A stretch of 27,993 nt of DNA from Clostridia bacterium (lineage in GTDB: Bacteria; Bacillota; Clostridia; Christensenellales; Aristaeellaceae): contig JAZRWA010000093.1 in NCBI GenBank assembly GCA_045599485.1, positions 1-27,993 of the forward strand, read 5' to 3'. Below, one piece after another: positions 4,311 through 27,993 of the stretch. Below the pieces are notes generated by a model. It was not told where the DNA came from, searched no databases, and saw nothing but the letters and a program-made list of their open reading frames with translations. Both the position numbers and the translations under genes were made by a program. Positions within the stretch are counted from its first letter, which is position 1. Each line of letters opens with the position of its first letter.

Positions 4311-5348
4311 TCAGCGGCTCGACGCGTCAAAGGTAACGGAACAGTCGGTGCCGGCGATATAGATTGTCTGATCATCATGATTCGGGATGAATTCCGTTAC
4401 ATACATGAACGCAGGCACATGCAGGGCTTCGAAACGGGTGCTGTTCAGTTCTGCGGAATCGGAGATCGGTTTGTACCATGCCGTCGTATCTTCAAGGGCA
4501 TAACCGCCCATGCTGAAGCGATCTTCCGCGGACATGCCGAAATAATAGACCGAGCCATACCCATCGCAGTCAACGATGCCCCATGTCGGATCAATGAAAT
4601 AGCTGCCGCCGTCGATGCGGGCGATCACCCACGCATGCGATCCTGCGCCGTTTTTATTGCCGGGGTTCTGCACCATATCGGCAGAGATACCTGCCAGATT
4701 GTAGAGGAAAGCCAGTCCGTTTGAGAAGCCGGTGCAGATGCCCGTATGATTCACGATGGCGGAGAAGGAGCCTTCCCAGTAATGCTGCTCCTGAAGCGTA
4801 TAGCTGTCAGCGTCATTGTAGATGGCATAATCGTATGTGCTGTCAATGGTGAAAGCATAATAGAGGATCAGGGCGCGCATGGCTTCGCTGTCGTCTTTGC
4901 GGAGCAGACTCATGTATTTATCCACAGAGGCCTCAAATTGCCGAACCAGCTCCATGGTCTCATCCGCATCATACATGTAATTGAGTTTGAGTATACCGGT
5001 GCGCGTGTTGAAATTCCGGTTGACATCATAATCCGTCAGTGCCATGACCGGCGGACACATGCGGTACAGCACGCCGCCGATGTAATCGACATCACCGAGA
5101 GACAGACCGTGAAGATCCACCTTTGTCTCATGGGCAAAGAAAGCGTCGACGACCCGTCTTGCACCATCGATGACCTTCGGATCCAGGCAGGCAGCGGTCA
5201 GTTCGGGTACATTGTGATAGTCGATCTCATATTCGTATCTTTCGTACGATCTTTCCACAGGTTCGGCTTCCTCCGCCGCCGTGAACGGGACGGCAAGTAT
5301 CATCATTGTCAGAATAACCGTTACCAGAAAACAGAGTTTCCTTTTCAT
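4311..5348 (-). CDS. Secreted transglutaminase-like (cysteine protease fold) protein
   Basis: 345-aa ORF with an AAGGAG RBS 8 nt upstream. The N-terminal signal peptide is MKRKLCFLVTVILTMMILAVPFTAA. Cys-His-Asp core candidates are GICTGFS, SHAWV and IDPTW. Confidence 0.8.
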   Translation of the reverse strand: MKRKLCFLVTVILTMMILAVPFTAAEEAEPVERSYERYEYEIDYHNVPELTAACLDPKVIDGARRVVDAFFAHETKVDLHGLSLGDVDYIGGVLYRMCPPVMALTDYDVNRNFNTRTGILKLNYMYDADETMELVRQFEASVDKYMSLLRKDDSEAMRALILYYAFTIDSTYDYAIYNDADSYTLQEQHYWEGSFSAIVNHTGICTGFSNGLAFLYNLAGISADMVQNPGNKNGAGSHAWVIARIDGGSYFIDPTWGIVDCDGYGSVYYFGMSAEDRFSMGGYALEDTTAWYKPISDSAELNSTRFEALHVPAFMYVTEFIPNHDDQTIYIAGTDCSVTFDASSR

Positions 5349-5566
5349 ATCATTTACTCCTTTTCATTTCTCCCGGATGCCGTGAATCCCTTATGGATCG
5401 TCCTGAAGCGAGGGAGCATATCCGGCTCCTGTTCACTTTCAGCCATGGGCAACTTCAATGATATTCGGGTATGACCATATTCGTCTATATATTGAATGAT
5501 TCTGTCAGAGCTTGGTTTTTCTCTTTCAAATCCATCGTCTTTCCATCGATACACAACTGCATTCGC

Positions 5567-5595
5567 ATTATAAGACCCAAATGGGACGCTGTCAA
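5567..5595 (-). promoter_or_regulatory. Consensus sigma-A/sigma-70 promoter (TTGACA, 17 nt, TATAAT) about 215 nt upstream of the transglutaminase-like gene
   Basis: On the minus strand, TTGACA is at 5595-5590 and TATAAT at 5572-5567, with a spacer of exactly 17 nt. Confidence 0.6.
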
Positions 5596-5805
5596 TCTTT
5601 GCTCTGTTTCCGCGCAAAGAAGGTCACGTGCGGGGTTTATATCGACTTGGAAAGGTCCCTCCTCCCACCGGACGGAGGTTTTCATATGCGGGCGCAGCCC
5701 TTTGTTTCTGTCCCGCCCTTGAGGTCGTAATACGGTCCGGCATTTGCTTGGGCTTGTTACCTGCTGTCCGTACATTAAACCGGTGCCTGGCGAATTCATT
5801 TCAAG

Positions 5806-5838
5806 CAACAAAAAACCACCCGAAGCTTGTCGGGTGGT
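5806..5838 (-). terminator. Rho-independent terminator of the hydrolase gene
   Basis: An 8-bp GC-rich stem (ccacccga 5816-5823 / tcgggtgg 5830-5837). On the minus strand it is followed by TTTTTTGTT. It sits 18 nt after the stop codon. Confidence 0.75.
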
Positions 5839-5855
5839 GCCAGGGGAGCGCCTGA

Positions 5856-6959
5856 TCACTGCACGTTTTCGCCGATCCACTGATCGACCACAGCAGCGAT
5901 GTCGAGGCTGTTCATTTCAATCATCATCATGTGACCATTGCCGTGAATGTCCAGATCGGGAAGGCTGATGTAGTCAATGTCGACACCGGCCTGAGACAGA
6001 AACATGGCGGTCAGATAGTCGTAGGTGTTATGATAGGAAGCTTCGGAGGTGATGATGGTCATCGGAATGTTCTTCAGGTTGACCAGCTGGCGGGCAGGTT
6101 CCTTCTGCAGCTTACCTTCACGCAGGCCGCTTTCCGCAGCGGGGGTGTAAGTTTCCGTTTCGATATCCTCGGGGCCGTTAATCGCGGGCTCAAAGGTCAT
6201 CGGCAGGCCGGTCACACCATAATCCGTATTGTTCTTGGAGAAGTTGGGTCCGGAGGGCTCCAGAGCCACAACCGCCTTGACCAGTGCAGGACGTGCATCC
6301 GCCAGCAGCCAGCCATAGGGACCGGACTGGGAATGTGTCACAACGATCGCGTCGCCGATCTTGTCCAGCAGGGCAGAGCCGGCATTCAGCGCGAGCTCCT
6401 GCATCACGATGTTGCTGCTGATAGAAACATTTTGAGTGGCATAAAACTGACGATAGGCTTCAGATTCCATGCTGATGTCTGCGGGCCACTGGGTCTGCAG
6501 CTCATTGTCAGTGCCGGCAAAGCTTGTCAGACCACGCTCGGCAGTCACATTGCGGTATGTTGTGGATGCATCAACAGGATAAGAAGCACGGCCGCGCGTA
6601 GGCATATCGCAAACATACACGATGTAGCCCTGGCCCACAAAGTAGTCAGTCCAGCCATCCTTGCCATCCACGGTGCCCATCCAGTTCAGACCGGTCTGGT
6701 AATTGCCGTGCAGGAAAACGATGGGATAAGGCTTGGTGACTTCTACGGGCTCAAACACTTCAACATACATCTGGCCGCGCATCACAGAGCCCTTGTCGGC
6801 TTCGCTGTTCACGTATTCACCGCCAACATAGAAGAAGCCCCAGTTTTTCAGGTTCGTGCGGTCATGCATCGGAATTCCATCAGGGACTTTTGCACCCTCA
6901 GCAAGCGCGCTGAAAGCAAACAGCATCAGTGCCAGGACGATCAAAAACACCTTTTTCAT
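5856..6959 (-). CDS. Secreted alpha/beta-fold hydrolase (esterase/lipase-like)
   Basis: 367-aa ORF with a GGAGG RBS. The signal peptide is MKKVFLIVLALMLFAFSALA. It has an HG oxyanion motif (VFLHGN) and a nucleophile elbow THSQSG. Confidence 0.85.
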   Translation of the reverse strand: MKKVFLIVLALMLFAFSALAEGAKVPDGIPMHDRTNLKNWGFFYVGGEYVNSEADKGSVMRGQMYVEVFEPVEVTKPYPIVFLHGNYQTGLNWMGTVDGKDGWTDYFVGQGYIVYVCDMPTRGRASYPVDASTTYRNVTAERGLTSFAGTDNELQTQWPADISMESEAYRQFYATQNVSISSNIVMQELALNAGSALLDKIGDAIVVTHSQSGPYGWLLADARPALVKAVVALEPSGPNFSKNNTDYGVTGLPMTFEPAINGPEDIETETYTPAAESGLREGKLQKEPARQLVNLKNIPMTIITSEASYHNTYDYLTAMFLSQAGVDIDYISLPDLDIHGNGHMMMIEMNSLDIAAVVDQWIGENVQ

Positions 6960-7303
6960 TGTTCAACCTCCGAATTATTCATCTTAACCAACAGCAACGT
7001 CAACGCTGCTGTAAAGTACAGTATCGTGGATCTGCACCGGTTCAAATCCTTATATAAATATCTTATAAGTATTGCCGGATAAAGTCCAATACATAATAGT
7101 CATAGTCACCGTACTGCTGCTCATAGATGCCCCGGCCGGCTTCATCGAAGGAAGGCATGCAGCCGTTCTCGCCTTGGCTTCTTGGGTTCAGCAGCGGAAC
7201 GATTCGATTGCTCGTATCCTTCAGTCGGCGGCGTTTACGACGAGATCGGTTCTTTCCGTTTGTGCGGATCGTAGTGCATAATGGCACGGCCGCGGCGGAT
7301 ACA

Positions 7304-11107: not shown

Positions 11108-11222
11108 TCTTTCGGTACAGAAGAAGAAAAGTGTTAAAATAGCCCTGTTTTCAGGGCGGAGCAACGCCTGTGCCGCCGTCCGCGCGAGGCGGCTCGGAGC
11201 ATTCCACAAGAAACGAGGTTTT

Positions 11223-13067: not shown

Positions 13068-13094
13068 CCGCCTTTCCCCTTCGGCAAAGAAAGC

Positions 13095-13137
13095 AAAAAA
13101 GGACACCGCCATGGATCCAATGGCGATGCCCTTTTTT
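13095..13137. terminator. Bidirectional terminator between convergent genes
   Basis: An imperfect 12-bp stem (13101-13112 / 13120-13131; 10 pairs, 2 mismatches), flanked by an A-run (13095-13100) and a T-run (13132-13137). Confidence 0.6.
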
Positions 13138-13148
13138 CGTAAGCCCGG

Positions 13149-14114
13149 TCAGCCGGAGATCTTCTCCAGCAGGGACAGCACGGTAAGCACCTGTTCTTCC
13201 GTCACGATCGGCGAGGGAATGTTTTGCTCCGCGCAGGCAACAAAATGGCTCAGCTCGCGATAGAACCAGCCATTGGCGGGAAGATTTGCCCCGCCGGGGA
13301 TCATGACCGGATCGGTGGTATCATAAGTCACGGTCTGCCCGGCGGCGTCATAGCCCCGGACGGATGCGCCGTCATAGATGAGCATGCCGCTTTCAAAGCT
13401 GACCCGCCAGCGCGCGGTAAAGGGAATGCAAGCGTTGAACCACGCGGCCTCCGCGGAGGCGGTCATGCCATTTGCCCACTTATAGATAAGACGGCACTGC
13501 GTCGGAAGGCTTCCGTCGGCGTGTTCGGCGGCGGTAAAGACTTCGCCGGGCGCGCCGAACAGGCTGACCGCCAGATCGAGATCGTGAATGTGCAGATCAA
13601 AGGGCAGCAGACCGCTCTTTTCCTTCTCCATCAGCCAGGAGCCCTGCGTCCACGCGGGGCGGGCGCTCAGCCGCTCAAACACCGCGTCCACCGGCGCGCC
13701 ATAGGTCTTTTCTTCGATCACCCTGCGCAGGACCGCCGTTTCCGGGGTGAAGCGAACCACCTGCGCGACATACAACTGTCGTTGGGCGGCTTTGGCCGCG
13801 TCAAACATTTGCCGCCCATCCGCAAGGCTCAGGGCGCAGGGTTTTTCACAGATCACATGCAGGCCGCAGGCAAACGCCTGCAATGCCAGCTCCTTGTGCA
13901 GATAGGTGGGCACGCAAATATCCGCCGTGTCGACCTTTATCGCCTGCGCGGCCTCGTAAATCGAAGCAAAGCACGGAATGCCCCAGCCTTGAGCGGTATC
14001 GCGATCCTGCTGCGTGGTTCCCACCAAGGCGGCGACCTGCACGCCGTCCATTTGACGATAGTTGTTGTAATGCGTTGTTCCCATGCCGCCGGCACCGACA
14101 AGCAGGATATTCAT
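13149..14114 (-). CDS. Gfo/Idh/MocA-family NAD(P)-dependent oxidoreductase
   Basis: N-terminal Rossmann motif MNILLVGAGGMGTTH. The ATG at 14114 has a GGGAGGAAG RBS 7 nt upstream, so the longer track start at 14198 is rejected. Confidence 0.85.
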   Translation of the reverse strand: MNILLVGAGGMGTTHYNNYRQMDGVQVAALVGTTQQDRDTAQGWGIPCFASIYEAAQAIKVDTADICVPTYLHKELALQAFACGLHVICEKPCALSLADGRQMFDAAKAAQRQLYVAQVVRFTPETAVLRRVIEEKTYGAPVDAVFERLSARPAWTQGSWLMEKEKSGLLPFDLHIHDLDLAVSLFGAPGEVFTAAEHADGSLPTQCRLIYKWANGMTASAEAAWFNACIPFTARWRVSFESGMLIYDGASVRGYDAAGQTVTYDTTDPVMIPGGANLPANGWFYRELSHFVACAEQNIPSPIVTEEQVLTVLSLLEKISG

Positions 14115-14201
14115 CTGATCTTCCTCCCGATAACAGCACTCCCCCGCCGCAAACAACGATCCGTCTGCCACGGGGGAGGATGTGATTTTCTTTTTCAATG
14201 A

Positions 14202-15017
14202 TTATAAAGCAATGCCGTGAGAACGGAAAAACGCCGCGCTGTCGCGTACCGCCCGGTTCACCTCTTCGAGGTTGGAAGGACCGGCTGCCGTGAACTCGAT
14301 CTCCACCGAGAAGGGGCTGTTGTTGCCGTTTTGATCCAGCACACCAAAGATGCCGTCAAAATCGATAGAACCCTTGCCGGGAGCGGGGAAATTCCACTCG
14401 TCCACGGCACCGGCCTTGTCCTTGATGTGCAGGAACGCCACATCATTCACGCAGGCTTTCAGGTCTTCCACGGGGTCGACCCGACCGTAAAAAACGACGT
14501 TTGCCGTGTCATAGTTCACCTTGACCCGGTCGCTGTTTACCTTGCGCACGATCTAAGCCAGACGGACGCCCGTGCCGTGATCCTTCCCGTGCGTTTCCAG
14601 CACCAGCATCATGTCCGCCGCCCTGAGATCGGGCACAAAGGCTTCGATGCAGCGCACCGTTTCATCCAGATCGGCCTCGTGCCCATCCCGGATGTGCGCC
14701 TCGCCGATGGAGGACACGATGTAGCGGCAGCCGAAAAGCTGCGCCAGACGGATGTTGTCGCGAAAATCACGGCTGCGGGCAGGGTCGGTCAGGTTGGTGT
14801 GACCGCTCATGGCGAACGGGGTCAGGTCATGATCGCGAAGCATATCCCGCACACGCAGCAGACGGCGCAGAGGCTGATCGGGAAAAACATGCTCTGTCCA
14901 TCCCTTGGTGGCCGTCAGTTCCATATAACGGAAGCCCGCCCGCGCGGTGCCCTCGATGGCATCCTCCAGAGAAAAGCCATGATAGCTGTTGGAATTCATT
15001 GCAACGATTCTGTCCAT
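14202..15017 (-). pseudogene. Xylose-isomerase-like TIM-barrel sugar-phosphate isomerase/epimerase, interrupted by a single in-frame TAG at 14555-14553 (a pseudogene under code 11, or a read-through gene)
   Basis: Track ORFs 14553..15032 and 14202..14549 are in the same frame, separated only by TAG and ATC. The N part (GFRYMELTA...MLVLETHGKDHG) and the C part (VKVNYDTANVVFYG...FLHIKD...FSVEIEF) are the two halves of one TIM-barrel fold. The likely start is the ATG at 15017, with a GAGGAGAAG RBS. Confidence 0.8.
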
Positions 15018-15028
15018 GGTGCTTCTCC

Positions 15029-16066
15029 TCACGCGTTGATGGTCACGGTGCGGCCCGTTTCGGCGGATTCGGCGGCGGCAAACACGGCACGCATGGCCGG
15101 CAGCACGCTCTCGGCGGAAATGTACGGCTGGATCGGATCGATCAGATGCGCCACAAACAGATCGATGATGCCCGAGCTGGTCTGATTGTCGTTGGTCTGG
15201 ATCTGATCGACATCATAGTATTCGGTCGTGCCGTCGCGCCTGCCCAGCACGATGCTGTGCGCGGGGTCGTCATAGATGCGCAGTACGCCCTCGGTGCCAA
15301 ACAGCACGGTCGAGTTGTCCTCGCCGCTGTAATCGGTCCAGGAGGCCGTCATGGTGCCCACCGCGCCGCCGCTCATCTGATAAATGCAGATGGCATTGTC
15401 ATCCACCGAGATGGGCTTTCCATCCGGCGTTTTCTTGTCGAGCGAGCCGAGGTAAGCGGTGACTCCGGTGACCGTCTGCCCCAGCAGATACTGGATCAGA
15501 TCCGTTTTGTGCACGCCCAGGTCGGCCATGGCGCCAAACGCGGCATGGGTCTTGTCAAAAAACCAGGTGCCGCTGCCGGAATCCACGCTCCAGGTCTCCG
15601 GGCCGCCGTGACGGAAGGCGGTGGTAAAGGTGATCACTTTGCCGATCGCGCCGCTGCGGATCAGCTCATACGCCTTCCGGTGTGCCGCCGCCAGCCGCTG
15701 GTTTTGACCGATCATAAGCACCTTGCCGCACTCCGCGGCGACACGCACCATCTCCTCACAATCGGCAAGGGTGATGGCCATCGGCTTTTCGCAAAGCACG
15801 TGCTTGCCCGCCTTCAGGGCGGCAATGGCCATCTGCGCGTGCGCGGCATTGGCCGTGCAGATGCTGACGGCGTCGATCTGCGGATCGTCCAGCATGCTTT
15901 CAAAAGTATCATACGCCACAGCGCCGTACTGAGCCGCAAGCCCCGCCGCGCGCCCGGCGTTGAGGTCAAACAGGCCCCAAATCTGTGCATCCGGGTTCGC
16001 CTGATATTCCGGCAGGTGGCGGACCTGGGCGATCTTGCCGCAGCCCGCAATGCCAACACGAATCAT
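15029..16066 (-). CDS. Gfo/Idh/MocA-family oxidoreductase (inositol/sugar dehydrogenase-like)
   Basis: 345-aa ORF with the Rossmann motif MIRVGIAGCGKIA, the family motif KHVLCEKP, and a GAGGTG RBS. Confidence 0.9.
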   Translation of the reverse strand: MIRVGIAGCGKIAQVRHLPEYQANPDAQIWGLFDLNAGRAAGLAAQYGAVAYDTFESMLDDPQIDAVSICTANAAHAQMAIAALKAGKHVLCEKPMAITLADCEEMVRVAAECGKVLMIGQNQRLAAAHRKAYELIRSGAIGKVITFTTAFRHGGPETWSVDSGSGTWFFDKTHAAFGAMADLGVHKTDLIQYLLGQTVTGVTAYLGSLDKKTPDGKPISVDDNAICIYQMSGGAVGTMTASWTDYSGEDNSTVLFGTEGVLRIYDDPAHSIVLGRRDGTTEYYDVDQIQTNDNQTSSGIIDLFVAHLIDPIQPYISAESVLPAMRAVFAAAESAETGRTVTINA

Positions 16067-16092
16067 AGGAGCACCTCATTTCCGAATCTGAA

Positions 16093-17124
16093 TTATTTTT
16101 CTTTCTTCTGCAGCATGACGGCGGCCACCACGATGAAGCCCTTGAAGGCCTCACGCAGGAAGGGCGGTACGCCGATCAGGTTGAGCAGGTTATTCATGAC
16201 GGCGATGATGAGCATGCCCAGCACCGTGCCCAGGATGGAGCCCTTGCCGCCACTCATGCTGGTGCCGCCGACCACGACCGCGGCGATGGCATCCATTTCG
16301 TAGCCGCTGCCCGCGTTGGCGTAGTCCATGCTGCCGATACGGGCGATCTGGATGACCGCGGTGATGGCCACCAGCACGCCGGACAGCACATAGATCAGGG
16401 TCTTTACACGCTCGACATTGACACCGGACAGGCGGGCCGCGCGCTCATTGGAACCGATGGCATAGACATGACGGCCAAAGGTCGTCCGCTTGGAGACGAT
16501 GTGCAGCAGCAGCGCGATCACAAACCAATAGATGATCGGCAGAATGATCTCACCGCCGATGCGGGTGTTGGCAATGGCCAGGAAATCTCTGGGCACCTTC
16601 ACGCCGACCGTCTGCATGAACTGCTGCGTCACGCTGCGGCAGATTTTCATCATGCCCAAAGTGGCAATGAAGGCGGGAATTTTGCTGCGCGCGATCAGCA
16701 CGCCGTTGATGCCGCCGATGGCCGCGCCGGCCAGCAGCGCCGCCGCGATGCCGATGATGAAGGCGGGAACGCCGGTAATGCCGACAGCCGTCAGCACGCC
16801 CGCCGCGTTGCTGTTGATGAGCACCATCATGATGGCGCCGACCGCCACCAGCGTGGAACCGACCGCCAGATCGATACCGCCGGAGATGATGACAAACGTC
16901 ATGCCCAGGGCGACAATGCCGACGCCGGCGTTGTTGCGCAGGATGTTGATCCAGTTTTTGCCCCAGTTGGTAAACCATTCACCGAAGCTGGCGTAGTTGA
17001 AGCCCAGCGCGATCGTCTGGATGATGATCATCAGGATCAGCACGGTGCCGGTCGAAATGAGGGGATTCTCCTGCCATTTGTCGATAAACCGGTGAAGGGG
17101 ATTTTTGCGTTTTTCAATCGTCAT
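16093..17124 (-). CDS. Sugar ABC transporter permease (ribose/xylose-type, BPD_transp_2 family)
   Basis: Polytopic membrane ORF. The ATG at 17124 has a GGAGGAAG RBS. Its hydrophobic repeat pattern is typical of RbsC-like permeases. Confidence 0.9.
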   Translation of the reverse strand: MTIEKRKNPLHRFIDKWQENPLISTGTVLILMIIIQTIALGFNYASFGEWFTNWGKNWINILRNNAGVGIVALGMTFVIISGGIDLAVGSTLVAVGAIMMVLINSNAAGVLTAVGITGVPAFIIGIAAALLAGAAIGGINGVLIARSKIPAFIATLGMMKICRSVTQQFMQTVGVKVPRDFLAIANTRIGGEIILPIIYWFVIALLLHIVSKRTTFGRHVYAIGSNERAARLSGVNVERVKTLIYVLSGVLVAITAVIQIARIGSMDYANAGSGYEMDAIAAVVVGGTSMSGGKGSILGTVLGMLIIAVMNNLLNLIGVPPFLREAFKGFIVVAAVMLQKKEK

Positions 17125-17173
17125 AACAATCTTCCTCCGGGATGGATGTAATATCATTTATCGCTTTGGGTGA

Positions 17174-18652
17174 TCAGCCGCCGGTGGCCATGCGCATGAT
17201 GTTATCCTCTGTCATGGTGCTGCCGGAAACCTCGCCGCAAATATCCCCGTGGTACATGACCAGGGCGCGTCCGCAGACACGGATGATTTCTTGCGCTTCG
17301 TTGGACAGCACCACCACGGCAACGCCCTGCCGGGCCAGCTGCAGAATGATATCGTAGATCTCTTCCTTGGCGCCGACATCAACGCCCTGCGTCGGGTTAT
17401 CCAGCACTAGCAGTTTGGGCTTGGCCATCAGCCATTTGGCCAGCACGACCTTTTGCTGATTGCCGCCGGAAAGGCTGCCGATGGGGTCGGAGGGCTTGCC
17501 CATTTTGATGCGCAGATCCTCTTTTTGCCGGTTGAAGGCGGCCCGCTGACGGATCCTGCTGATCAGGCCGAAACGCCTAAGCTGCTTCATGGTGATGATG
17601 GTGCCGTTATCGAGGATGTCCATATCCTTGATGATGGCGTTTTCCTTGCGGTTGCGCGGCACATAACCGACACCCAGCTGCATGGCATGCTGAATGGAGC
17701 GGATCGCCGTTTCCTTTCCGGAAAGGAAGATCCTGCCGCTGTATTTGTTCATATCGCCAAAGACGGTGCGGAAGACCTCGCTGCGTCCGTCGCCCAGCAG
17801 ACCGGTGACGCCCAGCACCTCGCCGGCATGCACCTGCATGTTGATGTGGCGGTAGCAGGGCTCGAGGGTCAGATCCTCCAGACGAAGGACCTCCTCGCCC
17901 CGCGCGGCGTTTTGCTCCAGCGCGTCCATGCGCACATCATGTCCTACCATGTCATGTGACAGCGCGGCAATGGTGGTATCCTTGACATCGCCGGCGGAAA
18001 CCATGTTGCCGTCGCGAAGCACCACGTATTTATCGCAGATCTCCATCACCTCGCGCAGCTTGTGCGAGATGAAGATCACGCCGACATTTTGCTTTTTGAG
18101 GGAACGGAGCATATCAAAAACGCGCTCGATCTCCGGATCGGTCAGGGAGGTGGTGGGCTCATCCATGATGATTATGGAAGCGTCCATCATCAGCGCGCGT
18201 GAAATTTCGGTAATCTGTTTATAGCTGGCATCCAGGGAGGCCACCTGCACCGCGGGGTCGATATCAATGTTCAGCCTGCGGAACAGTTCCCTTGTCTGCT
18301 TCAATTCTTCCTTGTGGTCGATCAGTCCGGCTTTGGAGACGATCTCCCTGCCGATGAACATGTTTTCGTACACGGGCAGATCGTTGATCAGATTCAGCTC
18401 CTGATGAATGAAAGCGACCCCGGCATTCAGGGACTGTGCCGGAGAAGCAAAGGTGACAGGCTTTCCGTCCAGCAGGATCTGGCCAGCATCGGGGCGAAGG
18501 ACACCGCCCAGGATATTCATCAGGGTCGATTTTCCGGCGCCGTTCTCTCCCAGCAGGGCGCAGATCTCACCGGATTCCAGTGAAAAATCCACCTTTTTGA
18601 GTACGTCATTGGCGCCGAAGGATTTTACGATCCCCTTCATGGATAGATTCAT
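17174..18652 (-). CDS. Sugar ABC transporter ATP-binding protein with two fused ATPase domains (RbsA/MglA-like)
   Basis: Walker A is GENGAGKST. The second-domain signature is LSGGNQQKV, and Walker B is IIIMDEPT. I chose the ATG at 18652 (MNLSMKGIVKSFG). Confidence 0.9.
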   Translation of the reverse strand: MNLSMKGIVKSFGANDVLKKVDFSLESGEICALLGENGAGKSTLMNILGGVLRPDAGQILLDGKPVTFASPAQSLNAGVAFIHQELNLINDLPVYENMFIGREIVSKAGLIDHKEELKQTRELFRRLNIDIDPAVQVASLDASYKQITEISRALMMDASIIIMDEPTTSLTDPEIERVFDMLRSLKKQNVGVIFISHKLREVMEICDKYVVLRDGNMVSAGDVKDTTIAALSHDMVGHDVRMDALEQNAARGEEVLRLEDLTLEPCYRHINMQVHAGEVLGVTGLLGDGRSEVFRTVFGDMNKYSGRIFLSGKETAIRSIQHAMQLGVGYVPRNRKENAIIKDMDILDNGTIITMKQLRRFGLISRIRQRAAFNRQKEDLRIKMGKPSDPIGSLSGGNQQKVVLAKWLMAKPKLLVLDNPTQGVDVGAKEEIYDIILQLARQGVAVVVLSNEAQEIIRVCGRALVMYHGDICGEVSGSTMTEDNIMRMATGG

Positions 18653-18738
18653 GGCTTCACATCCTTGTTTGCCCCCGGGCACGCAGCACGGTATGTTCAG
18701 GGGCTCTTGTTTCTTCTTGTTTTCGGCAGTAATACGGG

Positions 18739-18816
18739 GTTGCGCCTCTGGGCTTCCCCGGAGGCGCAACGGCTTGTCCGCGTTTTAGGGACTGCCCCCC
18801 GAAGGAGGCAGTCCCT
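18739..18816 (-). other. Two strong intercistronic stem-loops between the binding-protein and ATPase genes
   Basis: Two 10-bp perfect stems: agggactgcc/ggcagtccct (18787-18816) and gttgcgcctc/gaggcgcaac (18739-18770). No U-tract follows on the minus strand, so these are more likely mRNA-stabilising or processing structures than full terminators. Confidence 0.5.
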
Positions 18817-18833
18817 GCTTATTTGCGTTCAGA

Positions 18834-19775
18834 TCAATAGATGGTGTTGCTGGGATCGAGGTAGCTTTCCACGTTTTCGCTGCTCACGATCTGGGAGGGG
18901 ATGACGGTCACGGCCTCAACGGGCTCGCCGGCCAGCTTGGCCAGGGCAACGTCGAAGCAGTCACGGATCATCAGGGGGCTGTACAGAGAAGAGCTGACAG
19001 CGATGTCCTTGTTCTCGGCGATCATGGCGAAGTATTCCTGGCAGCCGCCGCCGCCGGTGATGGCCTTGATGTCGGTACGGCCGGCATCTTCGATGGCCTG
19101 CAGAACACCGATGGAGGTTTCGTCATCCAGGGAGTACACAGCGTCGATCTGGGGATTGGCGGCCAGGATATCGGCGAAGTCCTTCAGACCGTCTTCACGG
19201 GTGAACTTGGTGGCGTATTCGATGACCTTCAGTTCGGGAGCGATTTCCTTGATGGTCTCGTTGAAGCCGGCCATGCGCAGCTCAGAAACGGAGCCGCTGG
19301 TGGGAACGGGCAGCGCCACGACGGTAGCGGTGGGGCCGACCTTTTCCACGATGAACTTGGCACCGGCCACGCCCATGGACTTGTTGTCGCCGGTGACCTT
19401 CAGGATGCCGTCAGCGTCGATGTCCATATCGAAGGCCACAACGATGAGGCCCTGATCGATGGCGTTCTGCACGGGCACTTCCATGCCGGTCCACTGGGGA
19501 GCGATGACCAGGATCTTGGCGCCCCACAGGATGGCTTCATCCATCTGGGTGGTCATTTCTTCGGCGTTGCTGGAGGTGGTGAGCTTGTACTCGATGGTGC
19601 CGGCAGCAGCCAGTTCCTTGGCATAGGCTTCAGCCTGATAGGTGATGCCGCTGACCCAGCCATGCGTCATGACGGGCACGAGCACGCCGACCTTGACGGG
19701 AGCATCGGCCGCGAGGGCGGGCAGAACGCCCAGACACATCACGAGAGCGAGAACCAGAGCGAGAACCTTTTTCAT
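18834..19775 (-). CDS. Sugar ABC transporter substrate-binding protein (periplasmic-binding-protein type I fold)
   Basis: 313-aa ORF with an AAGGAGGA RBS and the signal peptide MKKVLALVLALVMCLGVLPALA. It heads the transporter gene order. Confidence 0.9.
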   Translation of the reverse strand: MKKVLALVLALVMCLGVLPALAADAPVKVGVLVPVMTHGWVSGITYQAEAYAKELAAAGTIEYKLTTSSNAEEMTTQMDEAILWGAKILVIAPQWTGMEVPVQNAIDQGLIVVAFDMDIDADGILKVTGDNKSMGVAGAKFIVEKVGPTATVVALPVPTSGSVSELRMAGFNETIKEIAPELKVIEYATKFTREDGLKDFADILAANPQIDAVYSLDDETSIGVLQAIEDAGRTDIKAITGGGGCQEYFAMIAENKDIAVSSSLYSPLMIRDCFDVALAKLAGEPVEAVTVIPSQIVSSENVESYLDPSNTIY

Positions 19776-19871
19776 GAGGGATCCTCCTTCAGAAAATGAA
19801 TTTCAGAGACCTGTACACCCGTTTTCTTCTTATTTCATGTCGATTTCGGGCGTACAATTCCCTTTTAAGGC

Positions 19872-19900
19872 ATTTTATAATATTGCCTGTCAAAAGTCAA
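19872..19900 (-). promoter_or_regulatory. Candidate promoter of the ABC/catabolic operon (-35 TTGACT, 17 nt, -10 TAAAAT)
   Basis: On the minus strand, TTGACT is at 19900-19895 and TAAAAT at 19877-19872. Confidence 0.45.
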
Positions 19901-19957
19901 TGATTTGTACTGTTGTTACATTTTGTTACATTTTTCTTCCCATTCCGCACAAATGGA

Positions 19958-19987
19958 CAAAAAAAGAGAGGGCTCCCGCGCTCTCTT
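19958..19987 (-). terminator. Terminator candidate after the LacI-family gene
   Basis: Stem agagag/ctctct around a GC-rich loop region (19965-19986). On the minus strand it is followed by TTTTTTT. It sits 10 nt after the stop codon. Confidence 0.55.
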
Positions 19988-19996
19988 TGTTGTTTT

Positions 19997-20980
19997 TTAT
20001 GTGGATTCGCGCACGATCAGCTCATGCGGAAGATAGATGCTGCTTTGACGGACCGCCCCGCCGATGCGGTCCAGCAGCAGCTGCATGGCGGTGGAGCCGA
20101 TCTGCTCCCGCGGCTGCGCCACGGTGGTGATCTGCGGCGTGAGCTGCGTACAGAGCTTGATGTTATCCACGCCGATGACGGCGATATCGCCGGGAACGCC
20201 GAGCCCCCGGCTCTGGATGGCGCGGATGGCCCCCGCAGCCACATGATCCGAAATGGCAAACACCGCGCGGGGGATCTTGTCACCCTGCAAAAAGCTCTGC
20301 ATGCCGATAAAGCCGCTTTCATAGGAATAGCTGGCGCGGTAGATGGGCTTTTCCCGTCGGGATTCGCCCGCCGCCTTCAGAGCATCGGTAAAAGCTTTTT
20401 CGCGCAGGCGGGTGGAAATGAAACGGTTGGCGGAGGACAGCATGACAATGTCATCATAGCCCCGCTGCAGCAGGAATTCGGTCGCCTGCCGCCCCACCGC
20501 GTAGTTATCGACCGAAACGTGGATGATCTCCGCCGCGTCCGCATATTCGCAGCACTGCACGGTGGGAAAACGCTCGGCGATGCTTTGCATCTCCTCCGCG
20601 GGCAGGACGGAGGACAGGAAGATGACGCCGTCCGCCTGCCGGTTGTGCAGGATGCGCATGATTTCCCTTTCGCGCTCCACCATGGAGTTGGTGGCCGCCA
20701 CCATCAGGGTATAATCGTTTTTCAGCGCGGTGTCGTTGAGACCGCTGATCACATCGCTCATGAAGCTGTTGCGGAAATCGGGCAGCACCACCAGGATGCG
20801 CTGTGTGCCGGCGGCGTATTGGGCGCTGCGGTTGATCACCAAAGAGTACCCCAGCTTTTCGGCGGCTTCGTTGACCTTGTTCACCGTTTTGCGGGAGACT
20901 TTTTCGGGCGTATTCAGCACGCGGGAGACCGTTGCGGTCGATACCCCGGCTTCGGCAGCGACGTCCCTGATGGTCGGCAT
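19997..20980 (-). CDS. LacI/GalR-family transcriptional regulator
   Basis: N-terminal HTH MPTIRDVAAEAGVSTATVSRVLN. The ATG at 20980 has an AGGAGGAAG RBS. The rest is a periplasmic-binding-protein-like sugar-binding core. Confidence 0.9.
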   Translation of the reverse strand: MPTIRDVAAEAGVSTATVSRVLNTPEKVSRKTVNKVNEAAEKLGYSLVINRSAQYAAGTQRILVVLPDFRNSFMSDVISGLNDTALKNDYTLMVAATNSMVEREREIMRILHNRQADGVIFLSSVLPAEEMQSIAERFPTVQCCEYADAAEIIHVSVDNYAVGRQATEFLLQRGYDDIVMLSSANRFISTRLREKAFTDALKAAGESRREKPIYRASYSYESGFIGMQSFLQGDKIPRAVFAISDHVAAGAIRAIQSRGLGVPGDIAVIGVDNIKLCTQLTPQITTVAQPREQIGSTAMQLLLDRIGGAVRQSSIYLPHELIVREST

Positions 20981-21130
20981 GGCTTCCTCCTGTGATACAG
21001 AAAACAGCAGCATTGGAGCGGATAATCTGCTTTCATTATATGAATGCCGCGGCAAATGTCAATGTTTCGGCAGTGAAGGACGAACGGCATCGGCAGGAAA
21101 AGATACAAAAAGTTTATTTGTGTTTTGTTC

Positions 21131-21159
21131 TTGATTTCATTTCCCTCTTACACTATAAT
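21131..21159 (+). promoter_or_regulatory. Candidate promoter (-35 TTGATT, 17 nt, -10 TATAAT) for the divergent TIM-barrel gene
   Basis: TTGATT is at 21131-21136 and TATAAT at 21154-21159. Confidence 0.55.
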
Positions 21160-21235
21160 GGAACCAGAGTAACGGGCTTGTTTTGCCTGTTGCGGGATAT
21201 TTATACAGCATCATATAGAAAGGGATGACAAGCCC

Positions 21236-22150
21236 ATGAAACTCGGTCTCGTCAGTGCCATTCTGGACGGATGGAATTTTGATGAAATGGCTGCCGCCGC
21301 CGCCAAGGCGGGCTATACCTGCGTGGAGGTCGCCTGCTGGCCCGTCGGCAAAGCCGAACGCCGCTATGCCGGCGTCAGCCACATCAATGTGGATACGCTT
21401 GATGACGCGCAGGCCGCGCACATTCACGAAGTCTGTGCCCAATACAATCTGGAAATTTCCGCCCTCGCCTATTATTCCAACTGTCTGGACAGCAACCCCG
21501 ACAAGCGGGAGACCAGCATCCGGCACCTGCTGAAGGTGATCGACGCCAGCGCGGCGTTGGGCGTCAACCTGGTCACCACCTTCATCGGACGCGACCAGTA
21601 TAAAAACGTGGAAGAGAACCTGCAGCTTGTCAGCGAGATCTGGCCGCCCATCCTGGAACACGCCAAGAGCAAGGGCGTGCGTGTGGCCATTGAAAACTGC
21701 CCCATGCTCTTTGGTCCCGATCAGTGGCCGGGCGGACAGAACATCATGACCACGCCCGACCTGTGGCGCAAAATTTTTGCCCTTCTGCCCTATGACAACT
21801 TCGGTCTGAACTTTGATCCGTCCCACTTTGTGTGGCAGATGATGGACTACATCAAGCCCATCTATGAGTTCAAGGACAAGCTGTTCCACATCCACTTCAA
21901 GGACATCAAGCTGTACCCCGACCGTCTGAACGAGGTGGGCATCATGGCCTATCCCCTCTCCTACATGAGCCCCAAGCTGCCGGGTCTGGGCGATGTGAAC
22001 TGGGGCAAGTTTGTCTCCGCGCTGACCGATATCGGCTATGACGGCCCCGCCTGCGTGGAGGTGGAAGACAAGTCCTTTGAAGGCACCCGGGAAAAGATCC
22101 TCGATTCGCTCCGCCTGTCCTGCAAGTGCATTTCGCAGTACATGCCCTGA
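21236..22150 (+). CDS. Xylose-isomerase-like TIM-barrel sugar-phosphate isomerase/epimerase (intact paralogue-type gene)
   Basis: 304-aa ORF with family-typical motifs (YTCVEVA, VRVAIENCP, LNFDPSHFVWQ, HIHFKD, ACVEVED). Confidence 0.9.
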   Translation: MKLGLVSAILDGWNFDEMAAAAAKAGYTCVEVACWPVGKAERRYAGVSHINVDTLDDAQAAHIHEVCAQYNLEISALAYYSNCLDSNPDKRETSIRHLLKVIDASAALGVNLVTTFIGRDQYKNVEENLQLVSEIWPPILEHAKSKGVRVAIENCPMLFGPDQWPGGQNIMTTPDLWRKIFALLPYDNFGLNFDPSHFVWQMMDYIKPIYEFKDKLFHIHFKDIKLYPDRLNEVGIMAYPLSYMSPKLPGLGDVNWGKFVSALTDIGYDGPACVEVEDKSFEGTREKILDSLRLSCKCISQYMP

Positions 22151-22167
22151 CAAGAGCGGCATGATGG

Positions 22168-22197
22168 GAAGCGGCCCAAAAAGCCGCTTCTTTTTTT
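22168..22197 (+). terminator. Rho-independent terminator
   Basis: An 8-bp stem (gaagcggc / gccgcttc) with a 7-nt loop, followed by TTTTTTT. Confidence 0.85.
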
Positions 22198-22207
22198 GTT
22201 TTTTCTC

Positions 22208-22236
22208 TTGAAAGGCCGAAAAAGATGTGATATGGT
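22208..22236 (+). promoter_or_regulatory. Candidate promoter of the GGDEF-EAL gene (-35 TTGAAA, 17 nt, extended -10 TGaTATGGT)
   Basis: TTGAAA is at 22208-22213 and TATGGT at 22231-22236. Confidence 0.5.
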
Positions 22237-22323
22237 AATAGACAGAAGATGTATACAACACCATAGACCGCGTTTGGAGCTGCCCGCCGCGACTGCAAAA
22301 CGCGATCATCAAGGAGCGGTCAT

Positions 22324-24864
22324 ATGGATGCCTTCTGTCCGATCTTGTATGGAAAAAAGAATATCAATGCCGGATTTTTCGATCAGACAGCGTTTGACGA
22401 AAAATTTGAGATCGAGCCGGAGAACGATTTCGTCCGGAATCTTTATCATATTGAAAACAAATACCTGGTTCCCGTGCTGTCGGGCGGCTTCCGGGACATG
22501 GTTGCCTATTGCAGCAAAAACCTGATCCATCCCGCCGACCGGAATTACGATGCGCTGATGGACCCGGACACCATGGCGGAGCGCTTTGCCCGGGCCGAGG
22601 ACGGCATGCTGCGCGCGCAGTTCCGCCACAAGCTGGTGGACGGCTCCTACCGTTGGGTGCGGTACATCGGCCTCACCGGCGAGGAGCGCGGCGTACCCGC
22701 GGGAAAGATCTATTTTTACATCTATGACGTTCAGAACCAGATGGACCGTCTGGAGGGGCGCACCCACAGCACCCTGTACAAAAAAGACCGCGACTCGCTG
22801 ACGGGACTGAGGACCCCGGAGGACTTTTTTCCCGCCCTTGCGGAAAAAGCAGCTCACAGCTGCAATACCGCCAAATGGTGCTGCGTCGCCATCGATATTC
22901 AGCATTTTACGGTGTTCAACGCCTGGTTCGGGCACGAAAAGGGCGACTACCTTTTGTCCCGCATCGGCAGCTATCTGTCCTCGCTGGAAGACACATAGGA
23001 CGCGGTGGCGGCTTACTTCGGGCGGGATAACTTTGCCGTTTTTCTCCGCCATGACCAAAAAAAGATCGAGGAAATATACACCTCGATCCGCCGCCTGATC
23101 TTTTCCCATGCCAATGTGGCGGGCTTTTTGCCGGCCCTGGGCGTATATGTGCTCAAGGAAGGCGAAAAGCCCGGCCTGCAGATCTATGACAACGCCCACC
23201 TTCCCCTGGAGGACGCCAAGAAGAATTATACCGAGCGCGTCCGTTATTTTGACTCCACCGGATATGAAAAGACACGGAAGAATTTTGAATTCCTGACCGA
23301 TTTTCAACGGGCCATCCGCGAGGAGGAGATCACCTTTTACCTGCAGCCCCAATGCCGCGTTGCCGACGGAAAGATCGTGGGCAGCGAGGTGCTGGCCCGC
23401 TGGGTGCGCAAGGACGGCACCGTCATGACCCCCGGAAGCTTTATCCCCTTTCTGGAGGCTAACGGCTTTATCACTGAGCTGGACAAGCACATCTGGGATC
23501 AGGCCTGCCAATGGATCCGCAGCCTGATGGACCGCGGCCTTGACCCCCTGCCCGTATCGATCAATGTATCGCAGATCGACCTGCTGAGCATGGATGTGGC
23601 GGAATACCTGGGCTCCCTGACGCGGCAGTACAGCATTGCCCCCGAATACATCAAGGTGGAGATCACGGAATCCGCCTACGCGGAAAACTATGACACCATC
23701 TCCGCCGCCGTCACAGCGCTGAAAAAGCGCGGTTTTACCGTGTATCTGGACGATTTTGGGGCGGGGTATTCCTCCCTGAACCTGCTGGACAAGATCCATG
23801 TGGATCTGATCAAGCTGGACATGCTGTTTATCAAAAAGGATACCCGTCTGGACAAAAAGGGCATCAGCATTGTGGAATCCATCTTTGGCATGAGCAAAAT
23901 GCTGGGGCTGCCCGTCATTGTGGAGGGCGTGGAAAACGAGGAACAGCTGCGGTTTTTGAAAAATCTGGGCTGCCGCTACGCCCAGGGGTATTATTTCCAC
24001 AAGCCCCTGCCCATGGACGCGTTTGAACAGCTGCTGGCGGAGGGCAGCCGCATCGACCGCGGCGGGCTGGGAAAAACGACCTCCGGCTTTTTCCGCGCGC
24101 AGGAATTTTTGCGGGAAAACATGTTTACGGAAAGCACGCTGAACCGCATTCTGGGCGCGGTGGCCTATTATGCCCTGGAGGGCGACAACATCACCATCAC
24201 CCGCTTCAACGGGCCCTTCCGCAGCGCCATCGGCGATACGCAGATGGATCACCGCATCGTCAATATTCAAAACTTTGTAGTGCCGCAGGATCACCCCGCA
24301 CTGTATGAGGCGCTGCGGCGTGCCGAGCAGAACACCGCCGAGGGCGGACGGTGCGAGATCCGCTTCATCAAGTCCGACGGCAGCATTTTCTGGTTCCGGA
24401 TGCAGTTCTATTTTCTGCACGGCGATGAAAACCGCAAGCTGTTCTTTGGGCAGGTGGAGGACATCACCGGGCAGCGGGAGCAGACCCTGCACTTTTTTGA
24501 CGTGCTGCGCCGACAGGCGGATGTGACCATGTGCATCGAATTGGACCGCAACCGCATCCAATATGTCACCGGCGAAAACACCCTCTATCAGCCCGACCTG
24601 CCCTCCATTGCGCTGGACCAGAGCGTGCAGCAGACGGCGCAGAACCGCATCCCATTGGAAAAGGACCGTCAGGCCTTCCTTCACTTCTTTGACAAGGACC
24701 GCCTGCGGGAGGCGTATAACAAGGCCATCTACCACGAGGTGCTGACCATCGCTTTCCGCCTGCACGGTTTTCCGGAGCCGGTGGAGTTTTCCACCTATTC
24801 CATCCGCTACAGCAAGGACGACGATCTGATCGTATACGCCTTTGCCAAGCGGCGGCCGACGTAA
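22324..24864 (+). pseudogene. PAS-like / degenerate GGDEF (GRDNF) / EAL / C-terminal PAS c-di-GMP phosphodiesterase-type protein, interrupted by one in-frame TAG at 22996-22998 (a pseudogene under code 11, or a read-through gene)
   Basis: Track ORFs 22324..22998 and 23005..24864 share a frame. The TAG falls inside the GGDEF fold, between DIQHFTVFNAWFGHEKGDYLL and AAYFGRDNFAVFL. EAL motifs are intact (EVLARW, DDFGAGYSSL, EGVENEEQ). There is an AAGGAG RBS. Confidence 0.8.
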
Positions 24865-25028
24865 AAAAGCTTCACAAACCCGATGTTTTTGCCCGCGTCT
24901 CCGGCCCTCTTCCACCCCTCTCCCCAGCCCGCTGCCGCCTCATTTTGGATCAAAAACGCCCCTTTTTTGCCCCACCGCACCGCGTCCGGGGCGTATCCCA
25001 TGATTGCCGTAAAGGAGGACGACCCCAC

Positions 25029-25643: not shown

Positions 25644-25661
25644 AAAACGGCGTTTTCCCCA

Positions 25662-25710
25662 CAAAAACAGCTCCGGCGGCGCTTTTTTGCCCCCGGAGCT
25701 TTCTTTTTTT
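25662..25710. terminator. Bidirectional terminator between convergent genes
   Basis: An 8-bp stem (agctccgg 25669-25676 / ccggagct 25693-25700), with an A-rich run before it and TTCTTTTTTT after it. Confidence 0.65.
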
Positions 25711-25722
25711 GCCTGAATGCGA

Positions 25723-26670: not shown

Positions 26671-26757
26671 GATAAACCTCGGATCTTTCTGTGTAAAAAA
26701 ACTTTTGCCGTCAGTATTGTTTAATGTCAGTATAAAAGCAGCCGCTGCAAATATCCA

Positions 26758-26772
26758 ATGCCTTATTGGCAT
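26758..26772. promoter_or_regulatory. T-N11-A type palindrome (candidate LysR box)
   Basis: ATGCC-ttatt-GGCAT, with a 5-5-5 dyad symmetry. It lies 88 nt upstream of the minus-strand LysR start. Confidence 0.3.
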
Positions 26773-26959
26773 AATATTTATCTTAAGTGTTATAGTTCAC
26801 GTTTCATTTTTTACTTTATTTACATTTCACATTTCAACTTTTGTTCATATCCTGCTCCTTTTGGGGCCGACATACCCCCTTGTGGTTTTGCTTTTTTTCT
26901 TGATTTTTCATAAGTTTTTTCTTATTTATCACATAATCGTTTCCGTATTTGATTTATGC

Positions 26960-26974
26960 ATAACAAAGCGTTAT
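26960..26974. promoter_or_regulatory. T-N11-A type palindrome (candidate LysR box)
   Basis: ATAAC-aaagc-GTTAT, with a 5-5-5 dyad symmetry. It lies 90 nt upstream of the plus-strand LysR start. Confidence 0.3.
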
Positions 26975-27063
26975 ACTTGGTATAAGTTCTTCTCTATATT
27001 CTCCATAAATGTTCACCATTCCGATCAGTGTGCCCGGTACTTCCGGGCAAAGGAGCCTTCCCG

Positions 27064-27993
27064 ATGAAATCTCAGGAGCTGCAGTACATCCTTGCCATCG
27101 CGCGTGCGGGCACCATATCCCGCGCCGCAGAAGAACTTTTCATCACACAGCCCGCCCTCAGCCGCGCCCTCGCCTCTGTTGAGACCGATCTCGGCTCCCC
27201 CCTGTTTGAACGTCACGGACGCCAGATGACCCTCACCGCCGTGGGCAGCGTCTATCTCAAATACGCCGAGCGTATCCTCGAAATGGAAAAGCAGATGAAG
27301 ACGCAGCTGCAGGAGATCATCCAAAGGCACGATGATGATTTACGCATCGCCGTCCCCATGTACTTCACCTCCCTCATCTCCTACTGCGTCTTTACCGAGT
27401 TCAACCAAAGGTATCCTTCTGTGCCGGTCAGCATCAACATTGCCGGCAGCAGCGAGATCGGCAGCGAGATCGCCAACGGCAATTCCTCGCTCGGTCTGGC
27501 GGTCCTCAAGGATAACCTGTCCGATCTTTTTGCCTACCACATCGTCGGGCAGGTGGAAACGGTCGTAGTCGTCAGCAGCAATCATCCGCTGCTGCAGCAG
27601 GCCGTGCCGGTCGAAGGGCGCCGTTACCCCTGCGTCACCTTTGAGCAGATCCGGGATTATCCCTTTGCCCGTTCCGCCGAGCATCAGCGCAGCTCCATCC
27701 TCTCCACCGCTTATTTTGAAAGGCACAACGCCAAGCCCAACATCGTCTGCCGGGTCGCCTATACCGGCTATCTGTACACCGCCGCAGCCACCGGCAGCTG
27801 CATCGCCCTGGCGCCCGGTCTGCCCATTCCGGAGGGCGGCTCCGATTTTCCCTCCGTCCGCTACCTCAGTCTGCGGGATACCTGCCTGATGGATACCCTT
27901 GCCGTCATCCGCTGCCACGAGCACAACCTTTCCGAGCCTGAAAAAGAGCTGATCGGCATGATCCGCCGCCTCTTCCAGCACGACGTTCTGTAA
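27064..27993 (+). CDS. LysR-family transcriptional regulator
   Basis: N-terminal wHTH MKSQELQYILAIARAGTISRAAEELFITQPALSRALASVETDLG. The ATG at 27064 has an AAAGGAG RBS. The TAA stop is at the window end. Confidence 0.9.
   Translation: MKSQELQYILAIARAGTISRAAEELFITQPALSRALASVETDLGSPLFERHGRQMTLTAVGSVYLKYAERILEMEKQMKTQLQEIIQRHDDDLRIAVPMYFTSLISYCVFTEFNQRYPSVPVSINIAGSSEIGSEIANGNSSLGLAVLKDNLSDLFAYHIVGQVETVVVVSSNHPLLQQAVPVEGRRYPCVTFEQIRDYPFARSAEHQRSSILSTAYFERHNAKPNIVCRVAYTGYLYTAAATGSCIALAPGLPIPEGGSDFPSVRYLSLRDTCLMDTLAVIRCHEHNLSEPEKELIGMIRRLFQHDVL

Follow-up and report, generated by a model that had tools for sequence, protein, structure and literature searches.

UAG is probably a sense codon, likely for glutamate, in a small lineage of gut Clostridia

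Does UAG still terminate translation in the clostridial bacterium represented by contig JAZRWA010000093.1 (assembly GCA_045599485.1)? The question is raised by two genes on this contig, whose 27,993 nt were analysed over their whole length and are referred to here as the window, each of which contains an in-frame TAG codon. The original prediction, made from the sequence letters, had reported these two codons together with a lack of genes ending at TAG, and had proposed that TAG does not act as an ordinary terminator here. The analysis presented below leads us to conclude that TAG is very probably translated in this lineage, and that the explanation combining the observations is that UAG is most likely a sense codon, probably for glutamate, rather than a terminator. 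Whether this amounts to a true UAG-to-glutamate code is, in our judgement, evenly poised. The lineage comprises the window organism, the metagenome-assembled genome (MAG) Horse_feces223 and probably the organism sampled in sequencing run SRR21150928, all of them Christensenellales/'Limiplasma'-like gut Clostridia.

The first TAG (14555-14553, minus strand) is codon 155 of a gene of 271 codons (15017..14202, minus strand; stop codon TAA), which, according to Pfam (AP_endonuc_2) and its homologs, encodes a xylose-isomerase-like TIM-barrel protein (sugar phosphate isomerase/epimerase). The second (22996-22998, plus strand) is codon 225 of a signalling gene of 846 codons (22324..24864, plus strand; stop codon TAA), in which Pfam recognizes a degenerate GGDEF, an EAL and a PAS_3 domain. 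Translation showed both codons to be present, as had been reported. With the TAG masked, a single AP_endonuc_2 match (residues 24-266) spans it in the TIM-barrel protein, and a single GGDEF match (residues 156-301), followed by EAL and PAS_3, spans it in the signalling protein. We collected 120 full-length homologs (~271 aa) of the TIM-barrel protein, among which identity reaches 77% and those with a name belong to MAGs of Clostridia or 'Candidatus Limiplasma'. Their residue at the TAG column is Asp in 69, Glu in 30 and Gln in 7 cases. The column of codon 225 in the GGDEF-EAL protein holds Glu in 16 of the 20 closest homologs. A public protein collection splits the GGDEF-EAL gene of the window into two entries, P0242 (224 aa) and P0121 (619 aa). 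Another split TIM-barrel pair, P0253/P0254 of a different MAG, was considered as a possible TAG split and rejected; both entries are 'partial' fragments with five residues missing between them, most likely owing to a sequence gap.

A scan of species-representative genomes for an oxidoreductase gene next to the TIM-barrel gene located one sole close relative, contig JAKSQG010000018.1 of the MAG 'Clostridia bacterium Horse_feces223' (GCA_024404275.1) from horse faeces, hereafter HF223. This contig of 18,950 nt was rebuilt whole from two loci, and its DNA is 92% identical to window positions 11195-21037. The TIM-barrel gene of HF223 contains the same TAG in an identical context (CGTCTGGCT TAG ATCGTGCG), and this codon has been kept across a synonymous divergence (dS) of ~0.3 (~8% divergence). 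Between the two versions of the gene there are 51 synonymous and 11 non-synonymous changes, 33 and 6 of which, respectively, lie 3' of the TAG. Six more in-frame TAGs are present in HF223: two in the gene for an ATP-binding cassette (ABC) ATPase, one in an oxidoreductase gene, one in the GGDEF-EAL gene and two in a surface-protein gene. Taken over both genomes, there are eight distinct TAG sites in six genes, and in-frame stops occur nine times, always as TAG. Neither TAA nor TGA was found in frame in any gene of the window or HF223, two apparent TGA codons in the HF223 alignment being located upstream of the true start codons.

The original prediction had named sense codons at both positions in relatives as one of the outcomes that would speak against it. 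HF223 does have GAG (Glu) at the GGDEF-EAL site, but it keeps TAG in the TIM-barrel gene. The pattern is moreover reciprocal, with TAG in HF223 at sites where the window has GAG or GAA, and such two-way swaps between TAG and Glu codons are what would be expected of interchangeable codons and not of decay.

Opposite the TAGs of the sugar ABC ATPase gene, the window has a GAG at positions 18050-18052 (minus strand; HF223 contig position 11363) and a GAA at 17288-17290 (minus strand; HF223 contig position 12125). The former lies in the first ATPase domain, four residues past the H-loop His, and the latter at the equivalent position of the second domain; these columns are invariably Glu (68/68 and 67/67 homologs, respectively). 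The two TAGs thus hit residues that are structural counterparts in the two nucleotide-binding domains. Gene conversion is unlikely to account for this pairing because the flanking DNA of the two sites is unrelated, and the placement could be a coincidence or the sign of a site preference. The public gene calls of HF223 list no gene at the place of this ATPase.

The TAG in the GGDEF-EAL gene of HF223 is at codon 818, where the window has GAG (24775-24777, plus strand) and Glu is the residue in 14 of the 20 closest homologs. The annotated HF223 protein, MCQ2453377.1, ends at this TAG, and the next ~24 codons (PVEFSTYSIRYSKEDDLIVYAFAK) continue in frame and are near-identical to the window, so that the public annotation shortens the protein by ~30 residues. 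The oxidoreductase TAG corresponds to TGG (Trp) at codon 30 (15977-15979, minus strand) of the window's GFO/IDH/MocA oxidoreductase gene (16066..15029, minus strand), in a variable column (Ala, Thr, Tyr, Val and others). The last two TAGs are in a 4.3-kb insertion found only in HF223 (contig positions 4110-8366), which is located between window positions 21037 and 21096. When both TAGs are read through, the insertion encodes one protein of 1417 residues with a signal peptide and with Cna_B and FctA domains. At its C-terminus, a VPDTG motif precedes a hydrophobic segment and an RRRR tail; together they form a sortase sorting signal, which lies 3' of the second TAG. With TAG as a stop, the gene falls into two open reading frames (ORFs), and the two targeting signals are not found together in either. 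Public gene calls divide the surface protein at a TAG, into ORFs of 685 and 625 aa.

A 2.4-kb Logan contig from run SRR21150928, 88.7% identical, probably represents a third lineage member and contains no TAG. A metagenome scan for further members found none, the best match being 74% identical. The lineage is represented by the window, one 19-kb MAG contig and one 2.4-kb Logan contig, and the analysis covered ~47 kb of its sequence.

The ratios of non-synonymous to synonymous substitution rates (dN/dS, Nei-Gojobori) between the window and HF223 are 0.07 for the TIM-barrel gene, 0.125 for the oxidoreductase gene, 0.09 for the ABC ATPase gene and 0.18 for the GGDEF-EAL gene, at dS values of 0.07-0.34. 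Given these low ratios, the TAG-bearing shared genes are maintained by purifying selection. As a control, 12 Pfam-verified window proteins were compared by tblastn with 159 other loci from genome and metagenome collections. Not a single internal stop of any kind was found in the 568 homologous genes (199,329 aligned codons) of these loci, whereas in HF223 the same search covered 10 genes (4,216 codons) and returned five internal stops, each one a TAG. Two internal TAGs in the window are therefore far beyond chance. The original view of TAG as something other than an ordinary terminator in this DNA, and not of the two codons as a coincidental pair of nonsense mutations, is thus supported by the conserved TIM-barrel TAG, the six further TAGs of HF223 and the dN/dS values of 0.07-0.18. 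The internal-TAG trait is present in the window and HF223 and absent from the 159 other loci, including the nearest outgroups (70-77% protein identity), which do terminate genes at TAG. By this distribution it is restricted to a small lineage, a clade defined by two genomes only.

Pfam re-annotation combined with a codon-usage score left 19-20 credible genes in the window, of which 13 end at TGA, 6-7 at TAA and none at TAG. The observation is thereby confirmed, with counts slightly different from the earlier tally of 15 TGA, 6 TAA and 0 TAG among 21 genes. Of the long ORFs, at least one (21137-22312, minus strand) does not represent a gene. All TAG-terminated ORFs of at least 130 aa in the window have scores per codon between -0.02 and -0.38, as non-coding DNA does, while the Pfam-verified genes score between +0.30 and +0.63. 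TAG likewise terminates 0 of the ~12 HF223 genes. Among relatives, TAG ends 19 of 244 orthologs and 5 of 46 publicly called genes, a background of ~8-11%; the public calls were used here since two home-made gene callers gave conflicting values (1.5-2.7% versus 20-26%). TAG seems to be an uncommon terminator in the wider Christensenellales-like clade, with 0 of 16 in one locus (L165) and 4 of 18 in another (L166). This apparent scarcity could have eased codon capture.

Which amino acid would be inserted at UAG? Five TAG sites are polymorphic between the window and HF223, and at four of them TAG stands opposite a Glu codon: GAG at 18050-18052, 24775-24777 (TAG in HF223) and 22996 (TAG in the window), and GAA at 17288-17290 (TAG in HF223). 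In this genome, GAG accounts for only ~20% of the codons that are one step away from TAG, and the binomial probability of at least four Glu codons among five is ~0.007, an approximate value in which the two-step GAA site is counted as GAG. A Codetta-type inference, based on a small sample of six sites, gave column log-odds of +7.2 for Glu, -9.3 for the next best residue and -11.4 for Gln; with the ABC ATPase sites left out, the value for Glu is +1.8 against -2.2. We also derived a neutral expectation for the 4,207 aligned codon pairs from the rates of substitution at 4-fold degenerate sites. If exchange were neutral, ~14 CAG/TAG, ~23 TAY/TAG and ~6 AAG/TAG pairs would be expected in these pairs, and none was seen. 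For GAG/TAG, ~8.5 pairs are expected and three were observed (including codon 818, which the automated alignment had missed), in addition to the one GAA/TAG pair. Judged by these exchanges, TAG behaves as near-synonymous with the codons for Glu but not with those for Gln, Tyr or Lys, which argues against both a phage-type reading as glutamine and a lysine-like reading as pyrrolysine.

Decoding of UAG as glutamate would require a tRNA with the anticodon CUA, most simply a tRNA-Glu in which a C-to-A change at position 36 has turned the anticodon CUC into CUA, and this tRNA would have to be charged with Glu. Many Bacillota lack glutaminyl-tRNA synthetase, and their non-discriminating glutamyl-tRNA synthetase accepts both C36 and G36, charging tRNA-Gln as well. 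If the present lineage has such an enzyme, its loose reading of position 36 would make charging of an A36 variant plausible. Release factor 1 (RF1) would be lost or weakened, and RF2 would terminate at TGA and TAA, the ends of every credible gene seen. No prfA or other release-factor gene is present within the ~47 kb, and searches for tRNAs and Rfam families revealed no suppressor tRNA and no recoding element in the window, HF223 or any of the loci. Of the six TAG sites in genes that both genomes have, only one is shared. Because TAG is rare, because so few of its sites are shared and because its exchange with GAG is below the neutral expectation, the reassignment looks recent or costly; it is probably young or not fully neutral, which would mean that codon capture is under way or that the code is at an ambiguous intermediate stage. 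To the full picture of a free-living gut lineage at an early stage of such a change, with chromosomal UAG read as glutamate by a tRNA-Glu(CUA) and with RF1 lost or disabled, we would give an even chance.

Several observations weigh against UAG as a codon for glutamate. The lineage is known from two MAG contigs and one 2.4-kb contig only, and a tRNA(CUA) was not seen, the ~47 kb examined containing no tRNA gene. TAG codons are rare (~0.03% in the window and ~0.12% in HF223). The fifth polymorphic site pairs TAG with the TGG (Trp) codon of the oxidoreductase gene, in a highly variable column. GAG can turn into TAG in a single step, so the association with Glu could be partly mutational. The exchange between GAG and TAG amounts to ~35-45% of the neutral expectation, which may mean that decoding is inefficient or ambiguous. 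The lack of TAG terminators, finally, is not significant alone: at the background in relatives, the probability of finding none among 20 genes is ~0.1-0.2, which bears out the warning in the original prediction that this is weak evidence.

Some of these points would also be expected if decoding were ambiguous or leaky, that is, if RF1 has been kept and a suppressor tRNA encoded by the chromosome, a prophage or a plasmid reads UAG part of the time, making TAG a weak stop as well as a sense codon. The lineage would then be at an ambiguous intermediate stage and would not have completed a reassignment. We consider this a real but minority possibility. It accords with the low TAG frequency (0.03-0.12%), with the sharing of only one in six TAG sites, with the three to four GAG/TAG exchanges observed where ~8.5 would be neutral, and with the fact that close relatives still end 5 of 46 called genes at TAG. 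However, two TAGs are present in a single essential subunit, the ATPase of a transporter, and another two in the 1417-residue surface protein, and genes with two TAGs need efficient read-through because the yields multiply across sites. Leaky decoding is also difficult to reconcile with the persistence of the TIM-barrel TAG through a dS of ~0.3 and with the fact that a TAG terminator was seen in neither genome.

A reading of UAG as glutamine, as in code 15, by a suppressor derived from tRNA-Gln would match the usual outcome of TAG reassignment in phages and many eukaryotes (PMC8629427, PMC10879173). Glutamine does occur at the TIM-barrel column in 7 of the 120 homologs, and replacing Glu by Gln is a mild substitution. 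The exchange data point the other way: the transition between CAG and TAG would be the synonymous route, and yet not one of the ~14 expected pairs was found. In addition, both ABC ATPase columns are 100% Glu with zero Gln, and the column log-odds disfavour glutamine strongly (-11.4 versus +7.2 for Glu). We therefore regard glutamine as improbable.

The TAGs might instead be artefacts of the MAG data, that is, mistakes in the consensus or the assembly, or a G called as T where the DNA was damaged or a base was modified. Both sequences are indeed MAGs, and most of the TAG sites correspond to a first-position change from G to T in a Glu codon. Such errors should, however, also convert GAA to TAA and GGA to TGA, and although GAA outnumbers GAG (235 versus 209), nine of the nine stops are TAG; at one site, two changes are needed (GAA to TAG). 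The same TIM-barrel TAG is found in two independently assembled genomes whose flanking sequences differ by ~8%. The nine TAG contexts have no common motif, and no modification or miscall signal and no signal like the pyrrolysine or selenocysteine insertion sequences (PYLIS/SECIS) is apparent in them. The substitution spectrum between the two genomes is ordinary, with 63% transitions and no gross excess of G-to-T changes, and the low dN/dS values likewise exclude a general excess of errors. An artefact is thus very unlikely.

Even less credible is that the TAGs are true premature stops, in pseudogenes or in functional split genes whose downstream halves are re-initiated. Re-initiation could make use of an in-frame GTG that lies two codons past the TIM-barrel TAG and three codons past the GGDEF-EAL TAG, and an EAL-only product might do, given that the GGDEF motif is degenerate (GRDNF). 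Neither GTG is preceded by a Shine-Dalgarno-like sequence, though, and purifying selection acts on either side of the TAGs. The ABC ATPase would fall into three pieces, cut inside both nucleotide-binding domains, and the part of the surface protein after its second TAG, which contains the end of a Cna_B-like domain and the sorting signal, would be useless as a separate peptide. Moreover, TAG alone occurs and never TAA or TGA, and the 568 homologs elsewhere have no internal stops.

A genome-wide reading of UAG as pyrrolysine, a bacterial counterpart of the archaeal 'Code 34', has similarly little in its favour. Pyrrolysine is, to our knowledge, the only natural UAG-decoding system in bacterial cells. 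Natural decoding of UAG thus has a precedent in bacteria, a genome-wide one exists in archaea (10.1101/2024.09.30.615893), and a gut habitat provides methylamines; yet TAG occupies invariant-Glu columns and exchanges with Glu rather than Lys codons (0 AAG/TAG pairs against ~6 expected), a bulky lysine derivative is implausible at the conserved Glu past the H-loop His of both ATPase domains, pyrrolysine in bacteria occurs only in a few methyltransferases and in one serine dehydratase (10.1101/2024.09.30.615893), and the TAG-bearing genes are unrelated to methylamine metabolism. The ~47 kb of lineage sequence contain no pyl genes.

With UAG as a probable glutamate codon, the lineage can be compared with known systems. 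The known bacterial code changes all reassign UGA, and three codes are counted in bacteria (PMC8629427; 10.64898/2026.05.24.727570; PMC13462651). Genome-wide reassignment of UAG is described only for pyrrolysine in some archaea, pyrrolysine in bacteria being confined to few enzymes (10.1101/2024.09.30.615893), and TAG is reassigned to Gln in gut phages (PMC10879173). We found no report of a chromosomal reassignment of UAG to a standard amino acid in bacteria, but our literature search was incomplete and this is an absence of evidence only. The bacterial UGA codes (codes 4 and 25, in which UGA means Trp and Gly, respectively) likewise captured a stop codon as sense, and by analogy with them a change in the cognate tRNA and the loss of a release factor would be expected here. 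They differ from the present case in the codon (UAG here), in the release factor (RF1 rather than RF2), in the amino acid and in that no AT-rich genome is involved here (the window has ~55% GC). The TAG-recoded phages with codes like code 15 (crAss-like, Lak and other gut phages) resemble the present lineage in having in-frame TAG in conserved genes, an apparent lack of TAG terminators, a gut habitat and a presumed suppressor tRNA(CUA). Here, in contrast, the TAGs are in chromosomal housekeeping and operon genes that are syntenic with those of standard-code relatives, and the amino acid would be Glu instead of Gln. In the archaeal Code 34, UAG is likewise sense throughout a prokaryotic genome, and it is hard to detect because the coding density under code 11 hardly falls; that system is archaeal and pyrrolysine-dependent, whereas the substitutions seen here point to the standard amino acid Glu.

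UAR codons are read as Glu in peritrich ciliates (code 30) and Blastocrithidia (code 31), in nuclear codes in which UAA is reassigned too and which involve changes in eRF1. These codes share with the lineage studied here the probable meaning of UAG; here, however, TAA still terminates 6-7 window genes, and the release factors are those of the bacterial RF1/RF2 system. In amber-suppressor or RF1-deleted laboratory strains of E. coli (C321.deltaA and others), UAG is read by a suppressor tRNA, and RF1 is dispensable when few or no genes end at TAG. Those strains were engineered, whereas the present condition is apparently natural, evolutionarily maintained and common to genomes that have diverged by ~8%.

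The remaining features of the window give it a chromosome-like bacterial character, with a GC content of ~55% and a chromosomal gene content. No phage similarity was found for the window, and matches to plasmids are trivial (~60 nt). According to Pfam and synteny, the TIM-barrel gene is part of a sugar-utilisation operon (13149..21055, minus strand) that encodes a LacI regulator, a binding protein, the ABC ATPase, a permease, an oxidoreductase, the TIM-barrel protein and another oxidoreductase. The genes of this operon terminate exclusively at TGA or TAA, and their order is shared with HF223 and with Christensenellales-like relatives, including chromosomal contigs of 100-500 kb of the latter. 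The GGDEF-EAL protein is probably not a cyclase because its GGDEF motif is degenerate, and it is probably a phosphodiesterase or a sensor instead. Several relatives have a longer form of this protein (~1,137 aa) with an additional C-terminal GGDEF domain.

Very long antisense ORFs lie opposite nearly all genes of the window, for example at 11151-13112 (minus strand), 5931-7082 (plus strand) and 22309-24915 (minus strand), reaching 868-877 codons opposite the GGDEF-EAL gene. Their codon scores are those of non-coding DNA, so that they are shadow frames, which are easily mis-called as genes. The rejected ORF at 21137-22312 (minus strand) is one of them, being the antisense shadow of a second AP_endonuc_2 gene (21236-22150, plus strand). 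A generic screen for stops spanned by homology was abandoned because such frames swamped it. As sense codons, TCA and TTA are very scarce, occurring 10 and 12 times, respectively, among 7,123 codons.

The first 4.3 kb of the window (1-4300) differ from the rest in GC content (40-47% compared with ~55%) and have an atypical codon usage. This low-GC island contains a truncated gene for an AAA_14/STAND-like ATPase (1-1269, minus strand) and a gene for a protein with Schlafen AlbA_2, HATPase_c_4 and Fic-like_C domains (1878-3317, minus strand), and it is possibly horizontally acquired or defence-related. Directly upstream of the Schlafen-like gene, at 3330-3395, there is an AT-rich, imperfect 21-nt tandem repeat of ~2.7 copies (consensus CTACTCTAATTTATCAAAAA), which gives one TAG per 21 nt on the minus strand and may be an operator or promoter repeat.

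If UAG is indeed translated as glutamate in this lineage, it would constitute a new natural genetic code and the first reassignment of UAG to a standard amino acid in bacteria. With its TAGs rare, mostly lineage-specific and exchanging with GAG, the lineage would offer a natural early-stage test of the codon-capture and ambiguous-intermediate models. It would also expose systematic annotation errors, such as the shortened MCQ2453377.1, the split GGDEF-EAL gene and the uncalled ABC ATPase of HF223. For genetic-code engineering, it would provide a naturally evolved UAG-decoding tRNA and synthetase, and possibly an RF1-free bacterium. The finding would finally bear on the conflict between the codes of gut phages and their hosts, as a host that decodes TAG could be permissive for TAG-recoded phages.

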